A DNA stretch of 64,000 bases from TPA_inf: Saccharomyces (Eukaryota), in the NCBI GenBank assembly GCA_000146045.2, contig BK006943.2, forward strand, positions 672,001 through 736,000, written 5' to 3'. This document shows positions 1,729 to 62,143 of this stretch, piece after piece (the stretch's first letter is position 1; the number at the start of each line of letters is the position of its first letter). The position numbers and the translations under genes are program-made. The notes under the pieces were generated by a model. The model had not been told where the DNA came from, did no database searches, and saw only the letters and a program-made list of their open reading frames with translations.

Positions 1729-3852
1729 TTATCTCATTTTTCCTTGCATTTCTACCATTTGTTGAACTTGTTGATGCATCATCTCTTTTAAATCGGACAC
1801 ATCATTTTCTAATTCCTCCACTTGTTCAGTCTTTTCACCTAATAGTTGTAAGGAGGTTTCCAATTTACTTTGCATCTGCTCAACTCTTTTTAAGAGATCA
1901 TCTTTCTGTTTATTTACCTCATTGAATTTATCGTTTTCTTCCAGAAGTCTTAAAATCTCATCATTTGCTTTTGTCTTTTCTTTCAGTAAATTATCGTATA
2001 ATTCCTTTGATGCTGATAATTCACCTTCCAATCTTTTTAACTCCGTACTTAACTTGTTCACCAGATGAGCGCTTATGTGGCCGTTAGAATTCGATAGCTG
2101 GACGCTAGCTCTTCTGTATGGTATTGATGTGTTGTTTAACGAGTTCATTGATTCCCCTTCCCTGATTGCTTGTAAAGCAGCGGCCTCTTCTGGAATATCG
2201 TCAATGCTGAAATCCACATTTTTTCTATCAAAATGTTGGCTTTCTTCGCTACATATGGTTTCGTGAGATTCATTGTAAATGGGTTTTAGAGACGGATCGC
2301 TTTCTAATTCGCCAAGTTTTGACATTGATAATGACAGCATAGAATTTTCTTGAGGTAAAGTCCATTCGTCTTCTATATTTCCCTCCATGGAGTTTAAACT
2401 ATCTGTTAATTCTACAGGTATTTTATCTATAATTTTCTCATTGCTGTTTTCTTGATGTGGTTTTAGTTCGTTCTCTTTTTGTTCCAACTGAGACCTTTGA
2501 ATTTCGTACTTCTTCTTCAGTAGATTATAATCATCACTTATACTTTGCAATGATGACTTCAATGTCTCCGCCCGTCTCTCCAAGTCTTTCACTTCCAAAA
2601 CTGCCTTCGAATGATTCTCTTTTTCTTTTTCTAATTGCTTACCTAATGTTTCAGATGAACGTAAGGCAGTTTGATATTTTTCTTCAATATCATTTTTTTC
2701 TTTCATTGTAGATTCAAAGCGGTTTTCCAAGTTCACAATTTTAGTGTTCAAAGCGTATTCAATACTATCCCAGTTGGCCTTTGATGACTCAAGCTGTTCT
2801 TTGAGCCGATTGTATTGGAAAGATGCGTGTTGTTTTTCTTCATAACTTTGTTGGTCATCGACAAAATCTCTATTTGATTTAGCGTCTAAATTTTGAGTAG
2901 AGCTATCTAATTCTATTCTTAGTTGTTCTAGTTTAGTCTCTAGAGTGGTAACTTGATCAACTGTTGCTTCTTGTAGTGCTTTCTTTTCCGTTTGAAATTC
3001 ACTTTTTTCTTTTTCAAGCAATGTTCTCATATTATCTAAAGATTGCTGTAAAATTGTTATCAAATCATCTTTTTCTTTTATATTTTTCTCTAATGTTTCA
3101 AGTGACTCTTTTTGTTTATCTGCATCCTTTAATTTATTTGTAGCTTCAGCCAGTTGTCCTTGTATGTTGTGATACAATGATTGCAGCTCATTATAGTTTT
3201 CGACACTCTGAGCAGAACTATCGTTTAGTTCAGATACCTCATACTCTAAGTCTTTCACTTTTGTTCTTAAAGCTTTGATTTGATTTGATTGCCTCAGCTC
3301 AGTTTCCGCTAATTTAGCTCCTTCTTTTCTCAACTGATCTATCAAGTCGTCCTTCTCTTTAATCAATTTGAAAAAACTAGAATCCGTGGTTTCGATTTGT
3401 GATTTTCTGTTTAGTTCGTTAGTTAGGTCATCAATCTGTTTGTTTAATCTTAAATATTCAGGACTAATTTCTTTGACTAATTCTTCAACAGTAAATTCAG
3501 TGTAATTTTTAGGTAGCCATGTAGGCAGTGATACCATAGTGTCGTCGAAGCAATCAGTCCTATTGTGATCGGGATGCACCACGTCATCGACAGCGATTGA
3601 ATCTGCCTTACCTGTATCGCCTTCCACAGTGCTTTCTGATCGTACCGCAGGATCATCTATGTTTTCAGCATTGTCAATTGACACCACACCGGCAGCCGCA
3701 TCATCAATGGATGTACGAGCACTTTCTTGTTCATTGTTTGACAGCACCACAGGCGATGGAGACGACAAATTTGACGTTGACCTTTTATTTTTCTTTCTTC
3801 CTTTCTTAGTTGCCAAGGAGAGTCTCTCTTCCAACGATAATTTTTTACTCAT
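1729..3852 (-). CDS. SGM1: Long coiled-coil Golgi protein, 707 aa
   Basis: ATG at 3852-3850. The protein is 707 aa and almost entirely heptad-repeat coiled coil, rich in E, K, L and Q, and matches the YJR134C length and position. Confidence 0.88.
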   Translation of the reverse strand: MSKKLSLEERLSLATKKGRKKNKRSTSNLSSPSPVVLSNNEQESARTSIDDAAAGVVSIDNAENIDDPAVRSESTVEGDTGKADSIAVDDVVHPDHNRTDCFDDTMVSLPTWLPKNYTEFTVEELVKEISPEYLRLNKQIDDLTNELNRKSQIETTDSSFFKLIKEKDDLIDQLRKEGAKLAETELRQSNQIKALRTKVKDLEYEVSELNDSSAQSVENYNELQSLYHNIQGQLAEATNKLKDADKQKESLETLEKNIKEKDDLITILQQSLDNMRTLLEKEKSEFQTEKKALQEATVDQVTTLETKLEQLRIELDSSTQNLDAKSNRDFVDDQQSYEEKQHASFQYNRLKEQLESSKANWDSIEYALNTKIVNLENRFESTMKEKNDIEEKYQTALRSSETLGKQLEKEKENHSKAVLEVKDLERRAETLKSSLQSISDDYNLLKKKYEIQRSQLEQKENELKPHQENSNEKIIDKIPVELTDSLNSMEGNIEDEWTLPQENSMLSLSMSKLGELESDPSLKPIYNESHETICSEESQHFDRKNVDFSIDDIPEEAAALQAIREGESMNSLNNTSIPYRRASVQLSNSNGHISAHLVNKLSTELKRLEGELSASKELYDNLLKEKTKANDEILRLLEENDKFNEVNKQKDDLLKRVEQMQSKLETSLQLLGEKTEQVEELENDVSDLKEMMHQQVQQMVEMQGKMR

Positions 3853-4058
3853 AGCAAAATTGGTATACCACTACCATACAACACTTTTTATATACTATTC
3901 TGGACTAAGGACCTTTTAACGACAGTCTATTAAAAGAGGAAGTCAAGAGCTTTTTGGTGAATAATCTACGGTTACTGCCAAATTATGATCTTCTAAATTT
4001 TGGCGCTTTATAACATCCTCACACCACTACGAAGCACACTTTGACTACGAAGTATTAC

Positions 4059-53783: not shown

Positions 53784-54824
53784 ATGAACACAGATTCACA
53801 CAACCTTAGTGAGCCATACAATATAGGTGGCCAAAAATACATTAATATGAAAAAAAAGGAAGATCTTGGCGTATGCCAGCCTGGCTTAACGCAAAAGGCA
53901 TTCACAGTCGAAGACAAGTTCGATTACAAAGCAATTATTGAAAAAATGGAAGTATACGGACTTTGCGTGGTCAAGAATTTTATAGAGACCTCCAGATGTG
54001 ATGAAATATTGAAAGAAATCGAACCGCATTTTTATAGATACGAATCATGGCAAGGCTCACCGTTTCCTAAGGAAACTACTGTGGCAACGAGATCGGTTTT
54101 ACACTCATCTACAGTCTTAAAGGATGTGGTATGCGACCGTATGTTTTGTGATATCTCAAAACATTTTTTGAATGAAGAAAACTACTTTGCGGCGGGAAAG
54201 GTGATTAATAAATGCACTAGTGATATTCAACTGAACTCCGGTATAGTCTACAAGGTTGGCGCTGGTGCAAGTGACCAGGGCTACCACCGAGAAGATATTG
54301 TTCATCATACGACCCATCAAGCATGTGAACGTTTCCAGTATGGAACCGAAACCATGGTAGGGTTAGGTGTAGCTTTTACAGATATGAATAAAGAAAATGG
54401 CTCTACGCGAATGATAGTCGGTTCACATTTGTGGGGTCCGCACGATTCCTGTGGGAACTTTGACAAGAGGATGGAATTTCACGTTAATGTTGCAAAGGGA
54501 GACGCAGTTCTATTCTTAGGGAGCCTCTACCATGCAGCCAGTGCAAATCGTACGTCACAAGACAGAGTTGCTGGATATTTTTTTATGACAAAGAGCTACT
54601 TGAAACCAGAGGAAAATCTTCACTTAGGGACTGATTTGCGAGTGTTTAAGGGTTTACCATTGGAAGCCTTGCAACTGTTGGGGCTCGGAATTAGTGAGCC
54701 ATTTTGTGGTCACATAGATTATAAGAGTCCAGGACATCTTATCAGTTCTAGTTTGTTTGAAAATGATATCGAAAAGGGGTACTATGGAGAGACAATAAGG
54801 GTGAATTATGGGTCCACGCAATAA
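53784..54824 (+). CDS. Phytanoyl-CoA dioxygenase (PhyH)-like Fe(II)/2-oxoglutarate oxygenase, 346 aa, uncharacterised
   Basis: Corresponds to YJR154W. It is 346 aa with a PhyH-type fold (H..D...H spacing). Confidence 0.8.
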   Translation: MNTDSHNLSEPYNIGGQKYINMKKKEDLGVCQPGLTQKAFTVEDKFDYKAIIEKMEVYGLCVVKNFIETSRCDEILKEIEPHFYRYESWQGSPFPKETTVATRSVLHSSTVLKDVVCDRMFCDISKHFLNEENYFAAGKVINKCTSDIQLNSGIVYKVGAGASDQGYHREDIVHHTTHQACERFQYGTETMVGLGVAFTDMNKENGSTRMIVGSHLWGPHDSCGNFDKRMEFHVNVAKGDAVLFLGSLYHAASANRTSQDRVAGYFFMTKSYLKPEENLHLGTDLRVFKGLPLEALQLLGLGISEPFCGHIDYKSPGHLISSSLFENDIEKGYYGETIRVNYGSTQ

Positions 54825-55128
54825 TCATTGTAACGGGAAAACATATCACCACAAGTTCGCTGTAAATGTGCAGACTGGGTGGCATGCTTCAAAAGCCTAT
54901 TCTAGTACTTCCCTGCTGTTTTCGCACGGAACCGGTAAGAAAACTTCGTACCGAAATCGAACAACTTTCATTACTTGCACTTGTACAAATTTAAGGGAGC
55001 GGGATTTTAAAACATATAAAAGGATAGTGGCACAACTAGGAATAAGGTGTATTACCCAATATGATTCTCACCTTCGGTTGGGGACTGGTTAATTAATTGA
55101 ATAGCTTCATAACCCACCGCCGCAAAAT

Positions 55129-55371
55129 GTGCTCTTCGAAATGTCTGAGGCTTTTGGACCTGCACCTGAACCACCTACCGAGTTAGGACGTCTTAGGGTC
55201 CTATCTAAAACAGCTGGTATAAGAGTTTCTCCACTAATCCTGGGAGGTATGTCTATTGGTGACGCCTGGTCTGGATTCATGGGATCAATGGACAAAGAAC
55301 AAGCTTTTGAGCTACTTGATGCTTTTTACCAAGCAGGCGGAAATTTCATTGATACTGCAAATAATTATTAG
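55129..55371 (+). pseudogene. AAD10: Orphaned N-terminal 80 codons of an aryl-alcohol dehydrogenase (AKR), ending in an in-frame TAG at 55369-55371, in the same frame as AAD10
   Basis: Frame 1 reads ...[32 protein letters not shown]... and continues straight into AAD10. Both ORFs start at a position equal to 1 mod 3. Confidence 0.75.
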
Positions 55372-55404
55372 TATGAGCAGTCAGAGACTTGGATCGGTGA
55401 ATGG

Positions 55405-56271
55405 ATGGCATCAAGAAAACTGCGTGACCAGATTGTAATTGCCACTAAATTTACCACGGATTATAAGGGGTATGATGTAGGCAAGGGGAAGAGTGCCAAT
55501 TTCTGTGGGAATCACAAGCGCAGTTTGCATGTAAGTGTGAGAGATTCCCTTCGTAAGTTGCAAACTGATTGGATTGATATTCTTTACGTTCACTGGTGGG
55601 ATTATATGAGCTCCATTGAGGAAGTTATGGATAGTTTGCACATTCTTGTGCAGCAGGGCAAAGTACTCTATCTAGGTGTGTCTGATACTCCTGCCTGGGT
55701 TGTTTCTGCAGCAAATTACTACGCCACATCTCATGGTAAAACTCCCTTTAGTATCTATCAAGGTAAATGGAATGTATTGAACAGGGACTTTGAACGTGAT
55801 ATCATTCCAATGGCTAGGCATTTTGGTATGGCTCTTGCTCCATGGGATGTTATGGGAGGCGGGAGATTTCAGAGTAAAAAGGCAGTGGAAGAGCGGAAGA
55901 AGAAAGGAGAAGGCTTGCGTACCTTTTTTGGTACTTCGGAACAGACGGATATGGAGGTTAAAATCAGCGAAGCATTGTTAAAAGTTGCGGAAGAACATGG
56001 CACTGAGTCTGTCACTGCTATTGCCATAGCTTATGTTCGGTCTAAAGCGAAACATGTTTTCCCATTAGTGGGAGGAAGAAAGATCGAACATCTCAAACAG
56101 AACATTGAGGCTTTGAGCATTAAATTAACACCAGAACAAATAAAGTACTTAGAAAGTATTGTTCCTTTTGATGTCGGATTTCCCACTAATTTTATTGGAG
56201 ATGACCCAGCTGTTACCAAGAAACCTTCATTTCTCACCGAAATGTCTGCCAAGATTAGCTTCGAAGATTAG
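55405..56271 (+). CDS. AAD10: Aryl-alcohol dehydrogenase family member (aldo-keto reductase), annotated as the truncated 288-aa product
   Basis: [16 protein letters not shown]... is an AKR fold, and 288 aa corresponds to YJR155W. The full-length paralogs are about 363-376 aa. Confidence 0.88.
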
Positions 56272-56573: not shown

Positions 56574-57596
56574 TTAAGCTGGAAGAGCCAATCTCTTGAA
56601 AGTACCTTCCTGTCTGCATTTTTCTTGATGAATAGCCATCAATCTTTGAGCTTCCAAAGGATCAGAAACCTCTTCTGGTTCTGGCCAGGACAAGTATTCA
56701 TTAGTGTAGTTCGAGACATAGTCTGGTGGCAGAATGGCTAATCTCTTACCGTAACCGGTAACCTTCTTCCAGTCACGGTGAACATTGTACAAAGATGAAG
56801 AGAAGTAAGCGTAACATCTTTGGTATTGCTTGTATGATAGATCGTTGTTCAATTGAGGCTTGAAGTCGATGTATTCTTTCCAAGCCTTCACAGGGTCGGC
56901 TAGAACGTAGTCGGTTGCCTTCTTGATGGCTTTCAAGAACTTTCTGACCTTTTCAGGGTTTTTCTTCAAAAATTCATCGTTGCAGATGTAAAGAACGGTA
57001 CAGAAACAACAGCAACCCAAGCAAGCCAACTTGTCAATTCTCAACATTTTAGCATCAGAAGCTGGTCTGCCTTGCTTGGCCAAGTACTCTTCCAATTCGA
57101 CTTGTTGCATACATTCGATACCAATACCAGCATCAATCTTATCTTCGATGATGTACTTGGCGACATTCATACCACATCTGACAGCAGTGTAGTCTTCTGG
57201 CTTCATACCGTAGTGCTTGGTCAATTCATCGATTTGGATCTTACCGAATTCACCAACGTAACCGATCTTCTTACCCTTTAGGGACTGGAAGTCTTCAGTG
57301 ATACCACTGCCCTTTAAGTACAAGACACCGGTGAATGGTTCGTCCAACAAAGAGGCAACAGAGGTCACTGGGAAACCACGGGCCTTGGCAGCCAAGGTGT
57401 GGATCATGGCTTTCAAACCCATGTCGACCTTACCAGATCCAATTAACTCAGTGACATCCGAAGGATTGGTTGGTTCTAGGATGGCAATGTCTAGACCTTG
57501 CTCCTTGAAGTAACCTTTGGTTTGAGCCAAGAAAATTGGAATATGGTATGGGGTTGGTTGCCAGTTCAACAAAAATGTGATCTTGTCTGTAGACAT
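56574..57596 (-). CDS. THI11: HMP-P synthase of the thiamine pathway (THI5 family), 340 aa
   Basis: Starts [30 protein letters not shown] and carries the CCCF motif. The track ORF extends 25 codons upstream to 57671. A TATA (reverse complement of 57632-57645) lies between the two ATGs, which favours the ATG at 57596. Confidence 0.9.
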
Positions 57597-58514
57597 AGCT
57601 TGGAAGTATGTGTATTGTTGTTGTGGTATTTTTATATAATTGAAAAGGTAAAAGAACGAAAGAATGGACAAGAATATTGTTCATGAAGATGATAATACGA
57701 GGTTTTTATATGTTTTGTTTGCTGTCGTCACAAGAGATTGATGTTGCTTATTTTGCTATAACAGCACCATTTTACATAACCTGGATAAGTAATATTTCAA
57801 GCCTTCTGCTAGTTGAATAATTCGTATATTTCATAGTTCATAAGCCATCCAATTCGAATTGAGCTCATTGCATCATAGCCAAAAATCGATAAATGCATTA
57901 ACGCTGTTACCTCCAGGTGATTGCTGTCTTTATGCATTAACGCGCCAATCTTATTCCCTTAAAACATTACGCCGGCAAAACGCTTAATCGCATATCCCAG
58001 TTGGCCCGAAAGAGAATGCACATATACAAATATATATGTAAAGGGAAATACCTTGTGACTACACCTATGCCTAAGTTTCAGTATCTGAACTAGGATAATT
58101 TCGATTATAACTCTAACATTTTTTACGTTTTCTCCATATTTCGAATTGTTCCTTCTTCAATCAAAATAATAAAAAAAAAAAATCACAAAAATGACTATAG
58201 TATTTTGAGCCCAACATGACTGCGAAATTGCTATTAACAATGATTAGTCAGTAGTATTGAATAACTTAGAATTTAAAACTACCTTATACAAGATGGGCAT
58301 ATAAAGGACATGCCAAATGGACATATTAAATACGCTCGATGTACCAGAACATCCAGGAACTTACCATAGAAAAATATGTAACGACTTATAAACTTTAAAT
58401 AAATTAGAGATTCAATGAATCTCTAATTTTTTCCGCCCGCCTATTGAACTTTTACTTTGTCATTAATCTATTCTGAAATAGGTACAGAGCGACGCCAGTG
58501 TAAACATATGTGTG

Positions 58515-58877
58515 ATGGACATCAGCATTCAATGTATATCTTATCACACCAGTTTATCCAAAGATAGATGCAGTTTTGAAATTGGTTACTTAGAATATTT
58601 CTACTACATTTCGATAACAAATATAACTATTTTGAATTTAAAAGTTGAGTATCCAAAAATTTTAGAAATACATACAATTACTTCCCAATTACTTCCCAAA
58701 TATTCTCCCCCCTGGTTTGATATCATAAAAGCACCTTATGGCAACAAGATTCCCGGGATAGTAATGCTATTTAAATGTATATCTATTTCTCGAATACTTG
58801 TATCTTTACTCCACTACCCCTATGCAAGAAGATACGCGATAGTTTTTGTTCCTTCCTCTTCCTACTCTGTTAATTAA
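58515..58877 (+). CDS. Dubious 120-aa ORF (YJR157W position) with no domain, probably non-coding
   Basis: First ATG at 58515; the track ORF begins at GTG 58512. The sequence is AT-rich and low-complexity. Confidence 0.2.
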   Translation: MDISIQCISYHTSLSKDRCSFEIGYLEYFYYISITNITILNLKVEYPKILEIHTITSQLLPKYSPPWFDIIKAPYGNKIPGIVMLFKCISISRILVSLLHYPYARRYAIVFVPSSSYSVN

Positions 58878-60439: not shown

Positions 60440-62143
60440 ATGGCAAGCGAACAGTCCTCACCAGAAATTAATGCAGATAATCTAAACAGTAGTGCAGCTG
60501 ACGTTCATGTACAGCCACCCGGAGAGAAAGAATGGTCAGACGGGTTTTATGACAAAGAAGTCATTAATGGAAATACGCCAGACGCACCGAAGAGAGGCTT
60601 TTTAGGTTACCTTATTATCTACTTACTATGCTATCCTGTATCCTTTGGCGGTTTTTTACCTGGTTGGGATAGTGGTATTACTGCAGGCTTCATCAATATG
60701 GATAACTTTAAAATGAATTTTGGTTCTTACAAGCACAGTACTGGTGAGTATTATTTGAGCAACGTGCGTATGGGTCTTCTCGTGGCCATGTTCAGTGTAG
60801 GATGTTCCATTGGCGGTGTTGCTTTTGCGAGACTTGCTGATACTTTAGGTAGAAGGCTAGCAATTGTAATCGTGGTTTTGGTATATATGGTTGGTGCAAT
60901 TATTCAGATCAGTTCGAATCACAAATGGTACCAATACTTTGTCGGTAAGATCATCTACGGTCTTGGTGCTGGTGGCTGTTCGGTGTTGTGTCCAATGCTT
61001 TTATCTGAAATAGCCCCCACAGATTTGAGAGGTGGACTTGTCTCATTGTACCAACTTAACATGACCTTCGGTATTTTCTTGGGTTATTGTAGCGTTTATG
61101 GAACAAGGAAGTATAGTAATACTGCGCAATGGAGGATTCCTGTGGGACTATGCTTTCTGTGGGCTCTAATTATCATCGTTGGCATGTTATTAGTTCCAGA
61201 GTCCCCAAGATATCTGATTGAATGTGAGAGACATGAAGAGGCCTGTGTCTCCATCGCCAAGATCGACAAGGTTTCACCAGAGGATCCATGGGTACTCAAA
61301 CAGGCTGATGAAATCAACGCCGGTGTCCTTGCCCAAAGAGAACTAGGGGAAGCCTCATGGAAAGAACTTTTCTCCGTCAAAACAAAAGTCCTTCAACGTT
61401 TGATCACAGGTATTCTTGTGCAAACCTTTTTGCAACTTACTGGTGAAAACTACTTCTTCTTCTACGGAACTACCATTTTCAAATCAGTTGGGCTTACTGA
61501 TGGGTTTGAGACTTCGATCGTCCTAGGTACAGTGAATTTCTTCTCCACTATTATTGCTGTTATGGTCGTAGACAAAATAGGCCGTCGTAAATGTCTGTTA
61601 TTCGGAGCGGCTTCAATGATGGCTTGTATGGTCATATTTGCAAGTATCGGGGTAAAATGTCTTTACCCTCATGGCCAGGATGGTCCATCCTCGAAAGGTG
61701 CAGGTAATGCCATGATTGTGTTCACATGCTTCTATATATTCTGCTTTGCAACGACATGGGCCCCTGTTGCTTATATTGTGGTTGCCGAGTCATTCCCTTC
61801 GAAGGTCAAATCTAAAGCAATGTCAATTTCGACTGCATTCAACTGGTTATGGCAATTCTTGATTGGTTTTTTCACACCATTCATTACTGGGTCTATCCAC
61901 TTCTATTATGGTTATGTGTTCGTAGGTTGTTTGGTTGCTATGTTTTTGTACGTTTTCTTCTTTTTACCAGAAACAATTGGTCTATCTTTGGAGGAAACCC
62001 AGTTACTATATGAAGAAGGTATAAAACCATGGAAATCTGCATCTTGGGTACCACCCTCAAGGAGAGGAGCTTCTTCCAGGGAAACTGAGGCTAAGAAGAA
62101 AAGCTGGAAAGAAGTTTTGAAGTTCCCAAAGAGTTTTAATTGA
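60440..62143 (+). CDS. HXT16: Hexose transporter, MFS sugar-porter family, 567 aa
   Basis: 12 TM, with PESPRYL and related sugar-porter signatures, 567 aa. It follows THI11 as in the chrX/chrIV-L subtelomeric blocks. Confidence 0.9.
   Translation: MASEQSSPEINADNLNSSAADVHVQPPGEKEWSDGFYDKEVINGNTPDAPKRGFLGYLIIYLLCYPVSFGGFLPGWDSGITAGFINMDNFKMNFGSYKHSTGEYYLSNVRMGLLVAMFSVGCSIGGVAFARLADTLGRRLAIVIVVLVYMVGAIIQISSNHKWYQYFVGKIIYGLGAGGCSVLCPMLLSEIAPTDLRGGLVSLYQLNMTFGIFLGYCSVYGTRKYSNTAQWRIPVGLCFLWALIIIVGMLLVPESPRYLIECERHEEACVSIAKIDKVSPEDPWVLKQADEINAGVLAQRELGEASWKELFSVKTKVLQRLITGILVQTFLQLTGENYFFFYGTTIFKSVGLTDGFETSIVLGTVNFFSTIIAVMVVDKIGRRKCLLFGAASMMACMVIFASIGVKCLYPHGQDGPSSKGAGNAMIVFTCFYIFCFATTWAPVAYIVVAESFPSKVKSKAMSISTAFNWLWQFLIGFFTPFITGSIHFYYGYVFVGCLVAMFLYVFFFLPETIGLSLEETQLLYEEGIKPWKSASWVPPSRRGASSRETEAKKKSWKEVLKFPKSFN

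Follow-up and report, generated by a model that had tools for sequence, protein, structure and literature searches.

A polymorphic in-frame stop codon upstream of the annotated AAD10 gene of Saccharomyces cerevisiae

The stretch of DNA that was analyzed (in the following "the window") comprises 64,000 nt of the S. cerevisiae contig BK006943.2, positions 672,001 to 736,000. It contains AAD10, a subtelomeric aryl-alcohol dehydrogenase gene of the aldo-keto reductase (AKR) superfamily on the right arm of chromosome X, which is located between the PhyH-family gene YJR154W (53784-54824) and THI11. The annotated AAD10 is an ORF of 288 aa, and its sequence is identical to entries named Aad10p of S. 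cerevisiae S288C, as determined by an exact protein look-up. However, the annotated ORF covers only a part of the ancestral gene, which is interrupted by a single in-frame TAG. The features in and around the gene are:

55015-55022, plus strand: TATA box TATAAAAG, part of the ancestral promoter of AAD10, found by pattern scan, 58 nt upstream of the implied transcription start site
55127-55129, plus strand: upstream ATG in another frame, whose ORF of 19 codons overlaps the ancestral start
55141-55368, plus strand: codons 1-76 of the ancestral AAD10, encoding beta1 to alpha2 of the AKR barrel with the catalytic residues Asp71 and Tyr76 (Pfam, alignment), unannotated in the reference
55369-55371, plus strand: premature stop TAG at codon 77, which was CAG (Gln) before a C-to-T transition at 55369
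55372-55404, plus strand: 11 in-frame codons between the TAG and the annotated start, conserved AKR sequence (alignment)
55405-56271, plus strand: annotated AAD10 ORF of 288 aa, codons 89-376 plus the stop, with Lys103 and His151 kept and Asp71 and Tyr76 absent
56574-57671, minus strand: THI11-like NMT1 gene, the convergent downstream neighbor of AAD10

The reading frame from 55129 to 56271 consists of 381 codons, and its translation contains two stops, namely, the TAG at 55369-55371 (codon 81 of this frame) and the terminal TAG at 56269-56271. An initial annotation of this DNA had described the frame as continuous from an ATG at 55129, interrupted by one TAG at 55369-55371, with a product of ~379 codons. 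The single interruption was indeed seen in the translation, and the rest of the frame is open to the terminus, but the proposed start did not hold. The in-frame codon at 55129 is GTG, which in the list of ORFs initiates an 80-codon ORF at 55129-55371, and position 55129 is the last base of the out-of-frame ATG at 55127-55129, which, moreover, is almost private to this strain. A start codon at 55129 was therefore rejected. The in-frame ATG is located at 55141, and all full-length alleles as well as the Saccharomyces paradoxus gene start with an ATG that is aligned with it. Counted from this true start, the reconstructed AAD10 has 376 codons (55141-56268), not 379, followed by the stop; the premature TAG is codon 77, there is no frameshift, and stops are found only at codon 77 and at the terminus. 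The annotated ORF begins at an internal Met 11 codons downstream of the TAG (55405 in the list of ORFs), exactly as had been stated, and the N-terminal loss that had been put at ~90 residues amounts to 88.

The open frame upstream of the TAG does not exist by chance, because both halves of the interrupted gene match one AKR profile. On their own, the 76 residues encoded upstream of the TAG match Pfam Aldo_ket_red (PF00248) at the profile positions 1-42 (E=3.9e-10), the 288-aa ORF matches the positions 59-290 (E=1.6e-55), and the fused 376-aa sequence matches the positions 1-290 of 291 (E=3e-76). In strains with the TAG, other gene callers had annotated the 76-aa stretch as a separate Aldo_ket_red ORF. 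A search of a large protein collection with the fused sequence yielded thousands of full-length fungal AKRs, and the top matches were Aad14p-type proteins of S. cerevisiae with lengths of 375-376 aa and identities of ~89-91%. The homology of the upstream ~80 codons to the N-termini of AAD proteins, on which the initial annotation had made its reading depend, is thus evident from the Pfam match and also from an alignment of the reconstructed sequence with 12 homologues, which include Aad14p and proteins from S. paradoxus, S. mikatae, S. uvarum, Lachancea, Torulaspora, Rasamsonia, and Lipomyces. Where the AAD10 frame has the stop, each of the 12 homologues has Gln, and D71, Y76, K103, and H151 form invariant columns. 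The motif IDTANNY is aligned with DTAxxY, the active-site motif of AKRs whose structures have been solved, and thus the stop is located directly after the catalytic tyrosine. The catalytic tetrad Asp-Tyr-Lys-His is incomplete in the 288-aa product, which has retained Lys and His, while Asp and Tyr are encoded upstream of the TAG. The ancestral AAD10 is a member of the AKR superfamily, and the present 288-aa product is not a competent enzyme. An identity of 89% to Aad14p and an NMT1/THI5-family gene as the convergent downstream neighbor place the gene in the subtelomeric AAD family of yeast (AAD3/4/6/10/14/15/16).

The nonsense lesion in AAD10 is already known, and it has been repaired experimentally. 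The same TAG was published as T(-35)AG by Yang, de Billerbeck, Zhang, Rosenzweig & Francois (Appl Environ Microbiol 84:e01553-17, 2017; PMC5734042). The ScAAD10 of Yang et al. agrees with the window in the upstream in-frame stretch of 264 bp, the TAG, the 88 lost residues, and the start ATG. Their cloning primer begins with ATGTCTGAGGCTTTTGG, which corresponds to the window from 55141 onward, and their mutagenic primer spans the window positions 55341-55396, with CAG replacing TAG. The 88 residues missing from Aad10p hold beta1, beta2, alpha1, alpha2, Asp71, and Tyr76; activity of the short Aad10p was not detectable, whereas Aad10p repaired by a T-to-C exchange catalyzed the NADPH-dependent reduction of hydroxymethylfurfural, phenylacetaldehyde, and 4-methoxybenzaldehyde (PMC5734042). 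The suspicion in the initial annotation that the truncated product may be inactive is therefore well founded, both by the absence of Asp71 and Tyr76 and by the contrast between the inactive short and the active repaired protein. The Vmax of the repaired Aad10p was 10-80 times below that of the Phanerochaete enzyme (PMC5734042). As the repaired enzyme was that much slower than this fungal reference, the ancestral AAD10 allele may already have encoded a weak enzyme. The lesion itself is no different from that described by Yang et al.; what is added here is a wider survey of alleles, the occurrence of the TAG on recombinant backgrounds, the state of the gene in S. paradoxus, the strain-specific upstream ATG, and the tie to published data on the 5'UTR and on nonsense-mediated decay (NMD).

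The survey covered 44 S. cerevisiae chromosome-X alleles, including that of the window. The loci were retrieved via exact protein identity, that is, they were fetched for the natural 376-aa protein P0122, for three 288-aa variants, and for three further 376-aa variants. Codon 77 was TAG in 18 of the 44 alleles (the window and 17 other assemblies) and CAG in the remaining 26, and these counts are not allele frequencies, since the alleles were selected by protein identity and do not represent a sample of the population. No other premature stop was present in any of the 44 S. cerevisiae alleles. The 26 CAG alleles, which are syntenic with the window locus, carry the sense codon that the initial annotation had proposed to look for in strains other than S288C, and some of them are identical to the window except for this base and synonymous changes. 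P0122 is the exact conceptual repair of the interrupted frame, with Gln at codon 77 (exact look-up). It is encoded at 6 chromosome-X loci with the same order of PhyH, AKR, and NMT1 (THI5-family) genes as in the window, and each of these loci has a C at 55369 and otherwise 1-11 synonymous differences from the window. Further 376-aa variants, including Aad10p of AWRI796, belong to the cluster of P0122. Of the intact alleles, L003, L006, and L042 are closest to the window, each with 2 differences in 1131 positions, an identity of at least 99.8%. The strain table of Yang et al., in which AAD10 is short in BY4741, YJM789, EC1118, and AWRI1631 and intact in AWRI796 (PMC5734042), agrees with the results for the 44 alleles.

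The stop is also not shared by the relatives of the gene. The chromosome-X orthologue of S. paradoxus has CAG at codon 77, and AAD14 has CAA, which shows that the event was a C-to-T transition that changed CAG to TAG. The CAG of S. paradoxus as an outgroup also speaks against the CAG alleles of S. cerevisiae being derived reversions. As there is one lesion, as other alleles of the species are intact, and as codon 77 specifies an amino acid in both S. paradoxus and AAD14, the locus has the characteristics of a polymorphic pseudogene. The finding of the same TAG in 17 other, independently assembled genomes as well as in the four strains with a short AAD10 listed above (PMC5734042) contradicts a sequencing or assembly error, and the presence of one disabling lesion in 376 codons, together with intact alleles that are only two bases away, contradicts an ancient pseudogene with many lesions. 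We attribute practically no probability to an explanation of either kind.

The TAG occurs on five haplotypes that cover all four combinations of the variants at 55432 (A/G) and 56001 (C/T), three of which are shared by CAG alleles. The mutation is thus old enough to have recombined, and it is not private to the reference strain. On the other hand, the TAG haplotypes are very much alike, whereas the CAG haplotypes hold ~40 synonymous variants, and the low diversity of the TAG haplotypes fits a young allele. The 288-aa protein identical to that of S288C was indexed in 120 blocks of the collection, whereas the contigs read for the three commonest intact variants in the sample (P0122, P0123, and P0125) numbered only 13-16 per variant. 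This indicates that many of the sequenced strains have the TAG allele. The claim of the initial annotation that the gene has undergone a recent nonsense mutation, and is not an ancient pseudogene, is correct insofar as the change is a single lesion that arose within the species, but the allele is widespread, has recombined, and is not a peculiarity of the reference.

The allele data also bear on the question of whether the gene could be conditionally functional, with full-length Aad10p being produced by read-through of the stop, which could be programmed or could require [PSI+] or a suppressor. Basal read-through occurs at every stop codon, near-cognate Gln, Tyr, and Lys tRNAs can decode UAG, and the insertion of Gln would restore the natural protein P0122. 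However, the stop context AAT TAT TAG TAT GAG is unremarkable for read-through; the known promoters of read-through in yeast (a 3' CAR-YYA and A-rich -1/-2 positions) are absent from it, and neither structure nor conservation speaks for programmed recoding. Furthermore, none of the 26 CAG alleles of the species shares the stop, nor does S. paradoxus or any of the paralogues. Its absence from the intact alleles and the outgroups indicates a mutation and not a conserved recoding site, so that read-through as the explanation for this TAG appears extremely improbable.

The transcript of AAD10 has been characterized in two studies. For S. cerevisiae AAD10, a 5'UTR of 332 nt was determined by CAGE, with an expression of 2.2 TPM, while the S. 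paradoxus orthologue had a 5'UTR of 54 nt and an expression of 17 TPM, and AAD10 was the example chosen in that preprint for the divergence of transcription start sites (TSS) and 5'UTR lengths between the two species (10.1101/2024.02.17.580833). Counting 332 nt back from the annotated ATG at 55405 leads to a TSS at ~55073, which leaves a 5'UTR of 68 nt in front of the ancestral ATG at 55141. The TSS is probably conserved, with the promoter and the TSS placed essentially as in S. paradoxus. The "long UTR" of 332 nt would then come from the annotated start, which lies 264 nt further downstream because of the nonsense mutation, and most of the difference in 5'UTR length between the species would be an artefact of the gene model being truncated. 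The lower expression of AAD10 in S. cerevisiae fits an mRNA that is degraded because of its premature stop. In the 316-nt promoter interval 54825-55140, no match to the Yap1 (TTASTAA, TGACTAA), STRE, or PDRE consensus was found.

On the CAGE-defined mRNA, the ATG at 55405 is the ninth AUG, preceded by eight others, and two out-of-frame AUGs, at 55373 and 55401, are located between the TAG and this annotated start. The out-of-frame ATG at 55127 lies 14 nt upstream of the ancestral start. The T at 55128 is shared only by the window and the locus L012, which is nearly identical to it, whereas the positions 55127-55129 are AAG in all 42 other S. cerevisiae alleles read there and ATT in S. paradoxus. 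Judged from the sequences, this upstream ATG is a second, lineage-specific change that would further lower translation from the ATG at 55141.

AAD10 RNA is listed among the NMD-sensitive transcripts in a 2025 preprint (PMC12363938), in line with the decay of the mRNA that is proposed below. However, in that work, the NMD sensitivity is ascribed to a YJR154W-AAD10 read-through ("pseudo-bicistronic") transcript and not to the stop at codon 77, and a shorter, AAD10-only transcript is derepressed in set1/set2 mutants (PMC12363938). The AAD10-only transcript could permit the synthesis of some 288-aa product, and its derepression might be taken to mean that the 288-aa protein is a real and functional product, for example, a neofunctionalized or regulatory AKR fragment, for the sake of which the stop is tolerated or even favored. 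The same reading could invoke the many sequenced strains with the TAG allele and the intactness of the 288-aa ORF in 17 of the 17 other TAG alleles sampled, although the latter is accounted for by the youth of the TAG allele. Several results argue against it. The 288-aa product lacks the catalytic residues Asp71 and Tyr76 along with beta/alpha units 1 and 2 of the barrel, the purified short Aad10p was inactive (PMC5734042), and its ATG is the ninth AUG on the CAGE-defined mRNA. In addition, the changes confined to TAG alleles have a ratio of nonsynonymous (F69I, K209E) to synonymous of 2:1, compared with ~3:40 for the changes confined to CAG alleles (Fisher p=0.028), a contrast from a sample biased by the retrieval via protein identity that fits, and is only suggestive of, relaxed constraint after the stop. 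Altogether, a functional role of the 288-aa protein seems very unlikely.

We conclude with high confidence that the sequence from 55141 to 56271 is AAD10 in the form of a young pseudogene with a single lesion, which is polymorphic in the species and coexists with intact, presumably selectively maintained CAG alleles. One C-to-T transition at 55369 converted the Gln codon 77 (CAG) to TAG, just past the catalytic tyrosine. Transcription would still proceed from the ancestral promoter with the TATA box at 55015 and the TSS near 55073. Ribosomes would initiate at the ATG at 55141 or at the strain-specific, out-of-frame ATG at 55127, and the TAG would terminate translation after 76 codons, whereupon the AAD10 mRNA would likely become a substrate of NMD. 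A 76-residue fragment would be made, and little 288-aa protein is to be expected, because the ATG at 55405 is only the ninth AUG on the mRNA. In yeast, ribosomes reinitiate only inefficiently downstream of a 76-codon ORF. If some 288-aa protein is nevertheless produced, it is enzymatically dead and lacks beta1 to alpha2 as well as two of the four catalytic residues. It is conceivable, but unlikely, that the TAG allele has spread owing to an advantage of the loss of Aad10 in human-associated niches, or that the 76-codon uORF and the NMD-sensitive mRNA serve to regulate the locus.

The closest paralogue of AAD10 is AAD14 (YNL331C), an active aryl-alcohol dehydrogenase gene of 376 aa, which has identities of 89% (amino acids) and 83.6% (nucleotides) to the reconstructed AAD10 over the whole gene. 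Both genes reside in a subtelomeric neighborhood of AKR, THI5-family, and SNZ genes. In contrast to AAD10, AAD14 is intact, with the Gln codon CAA at codon 77, and the 300-nt upstream regions of the two are unrelated, with an ungapped identity of 28%. AAD6/AAD16 (YFL056C/YFL057C) resembles AAD10 in that the gene has been inactivated by one small lesion in the reference strain and activity has been restored by its repair. However, the initial annotation was inexact in assigning the same kind of lesion to AAD6/AAD16, which does not contain a nonsense codon but a 1-nt deletion at G517-C518 that causes a frameshift and has led to the annotation of two ORFs (PMC5734042).

The syntenic orthologue in S. 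paradoxus CBS432, SPAR_J03310 (locus L007), is embedded in the gene order PhyH, AKR, NMT1, SNZ. It has CAG at the site of the S288C stop, and its start ATG is aligned with 55141. Nevertheless, it contains a nonsense mutation of its own, CAG to TAG, at L007:3967-3969, equivalent to 56098-56100 of the window, which is absent from the AAD10 allele of the window. A further difference is a 9-nt in-frame insertion in a T/G run at approximately L007:3102-3110. In the public model of SPAR_J03310, which has a length of 363 aa, the stop has been removed by an artificial "intron" of 45 nt. Comparison of the two sequences thus indicates that the AAD10 locus has decayed independently in the sister species.

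The direct importance of these findings is small, because this is an ordinary case of gene-family decay in a subtelomere, and the resurrection of the enzyme had already been documented. The useful additions are the consequences for annotation and the independent nonsense mutation in the orthologue of the S. paradoxus reference. The 288-aa "AAD10" model of the reference represents the tail of a broken gene. It inflates the apparent 5'UTR to 332 nt, which was taken for TSS divergence in the preprint discussed above, and its transfer to other strains conceals intact 376-codon alleles, as in two YJM assemblies. For work on expression, UTRs, and pan-genomes, the start of the gene should be set to 55141, and the AAD10 allele of the reference should be treated as a null allele.

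Two of the surveyed loci, L018 (GCA_000976605.3) and L019 (GCA_000976455.3), each with the gene at 2737-3867, have an annotated 288-aa Aad10p in spite of CAG at codon 77 and an intact ORF of 376 codons. Evidently, these models were transferred from the reference and hide functional alleles. Two other intact alleles, L043 and L044, have 17-23 densely clustered differences from the window in the region equivalent to 55548-55863. About half of the differences match AAD14 (13 of 23 in one allele and 9 of 17 in the other), a pattern that suggests gene conversion between AAD paralogues.

The homology of the window to the chromosome-X loci of most other strains ends at 57995 (compare L009:5592 onward), about 320 bp beyond the THI11-like NMT1 gene. 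Beyond this break, an SNZ gene (PF01680) follows in S. paradoxus and in the majority of the other S. cerevisiae strains, while the window contains only:

58512-58877: ORF of 121 aa with no family
60440-62143: sugar-transporter gene

The junction of the window type was found in only 5 of the 44 loci (L006, L011, L012, L022, and L025). It is combined with the TAG in L011, L012, L022, and L025 and with CAG in L006, so that a linkage of the TAG to the S288C type of subtelomere was rejected. From the comparison of the loci, the junction at 57995 is best described as a structural polymorphism of the subtelomere.
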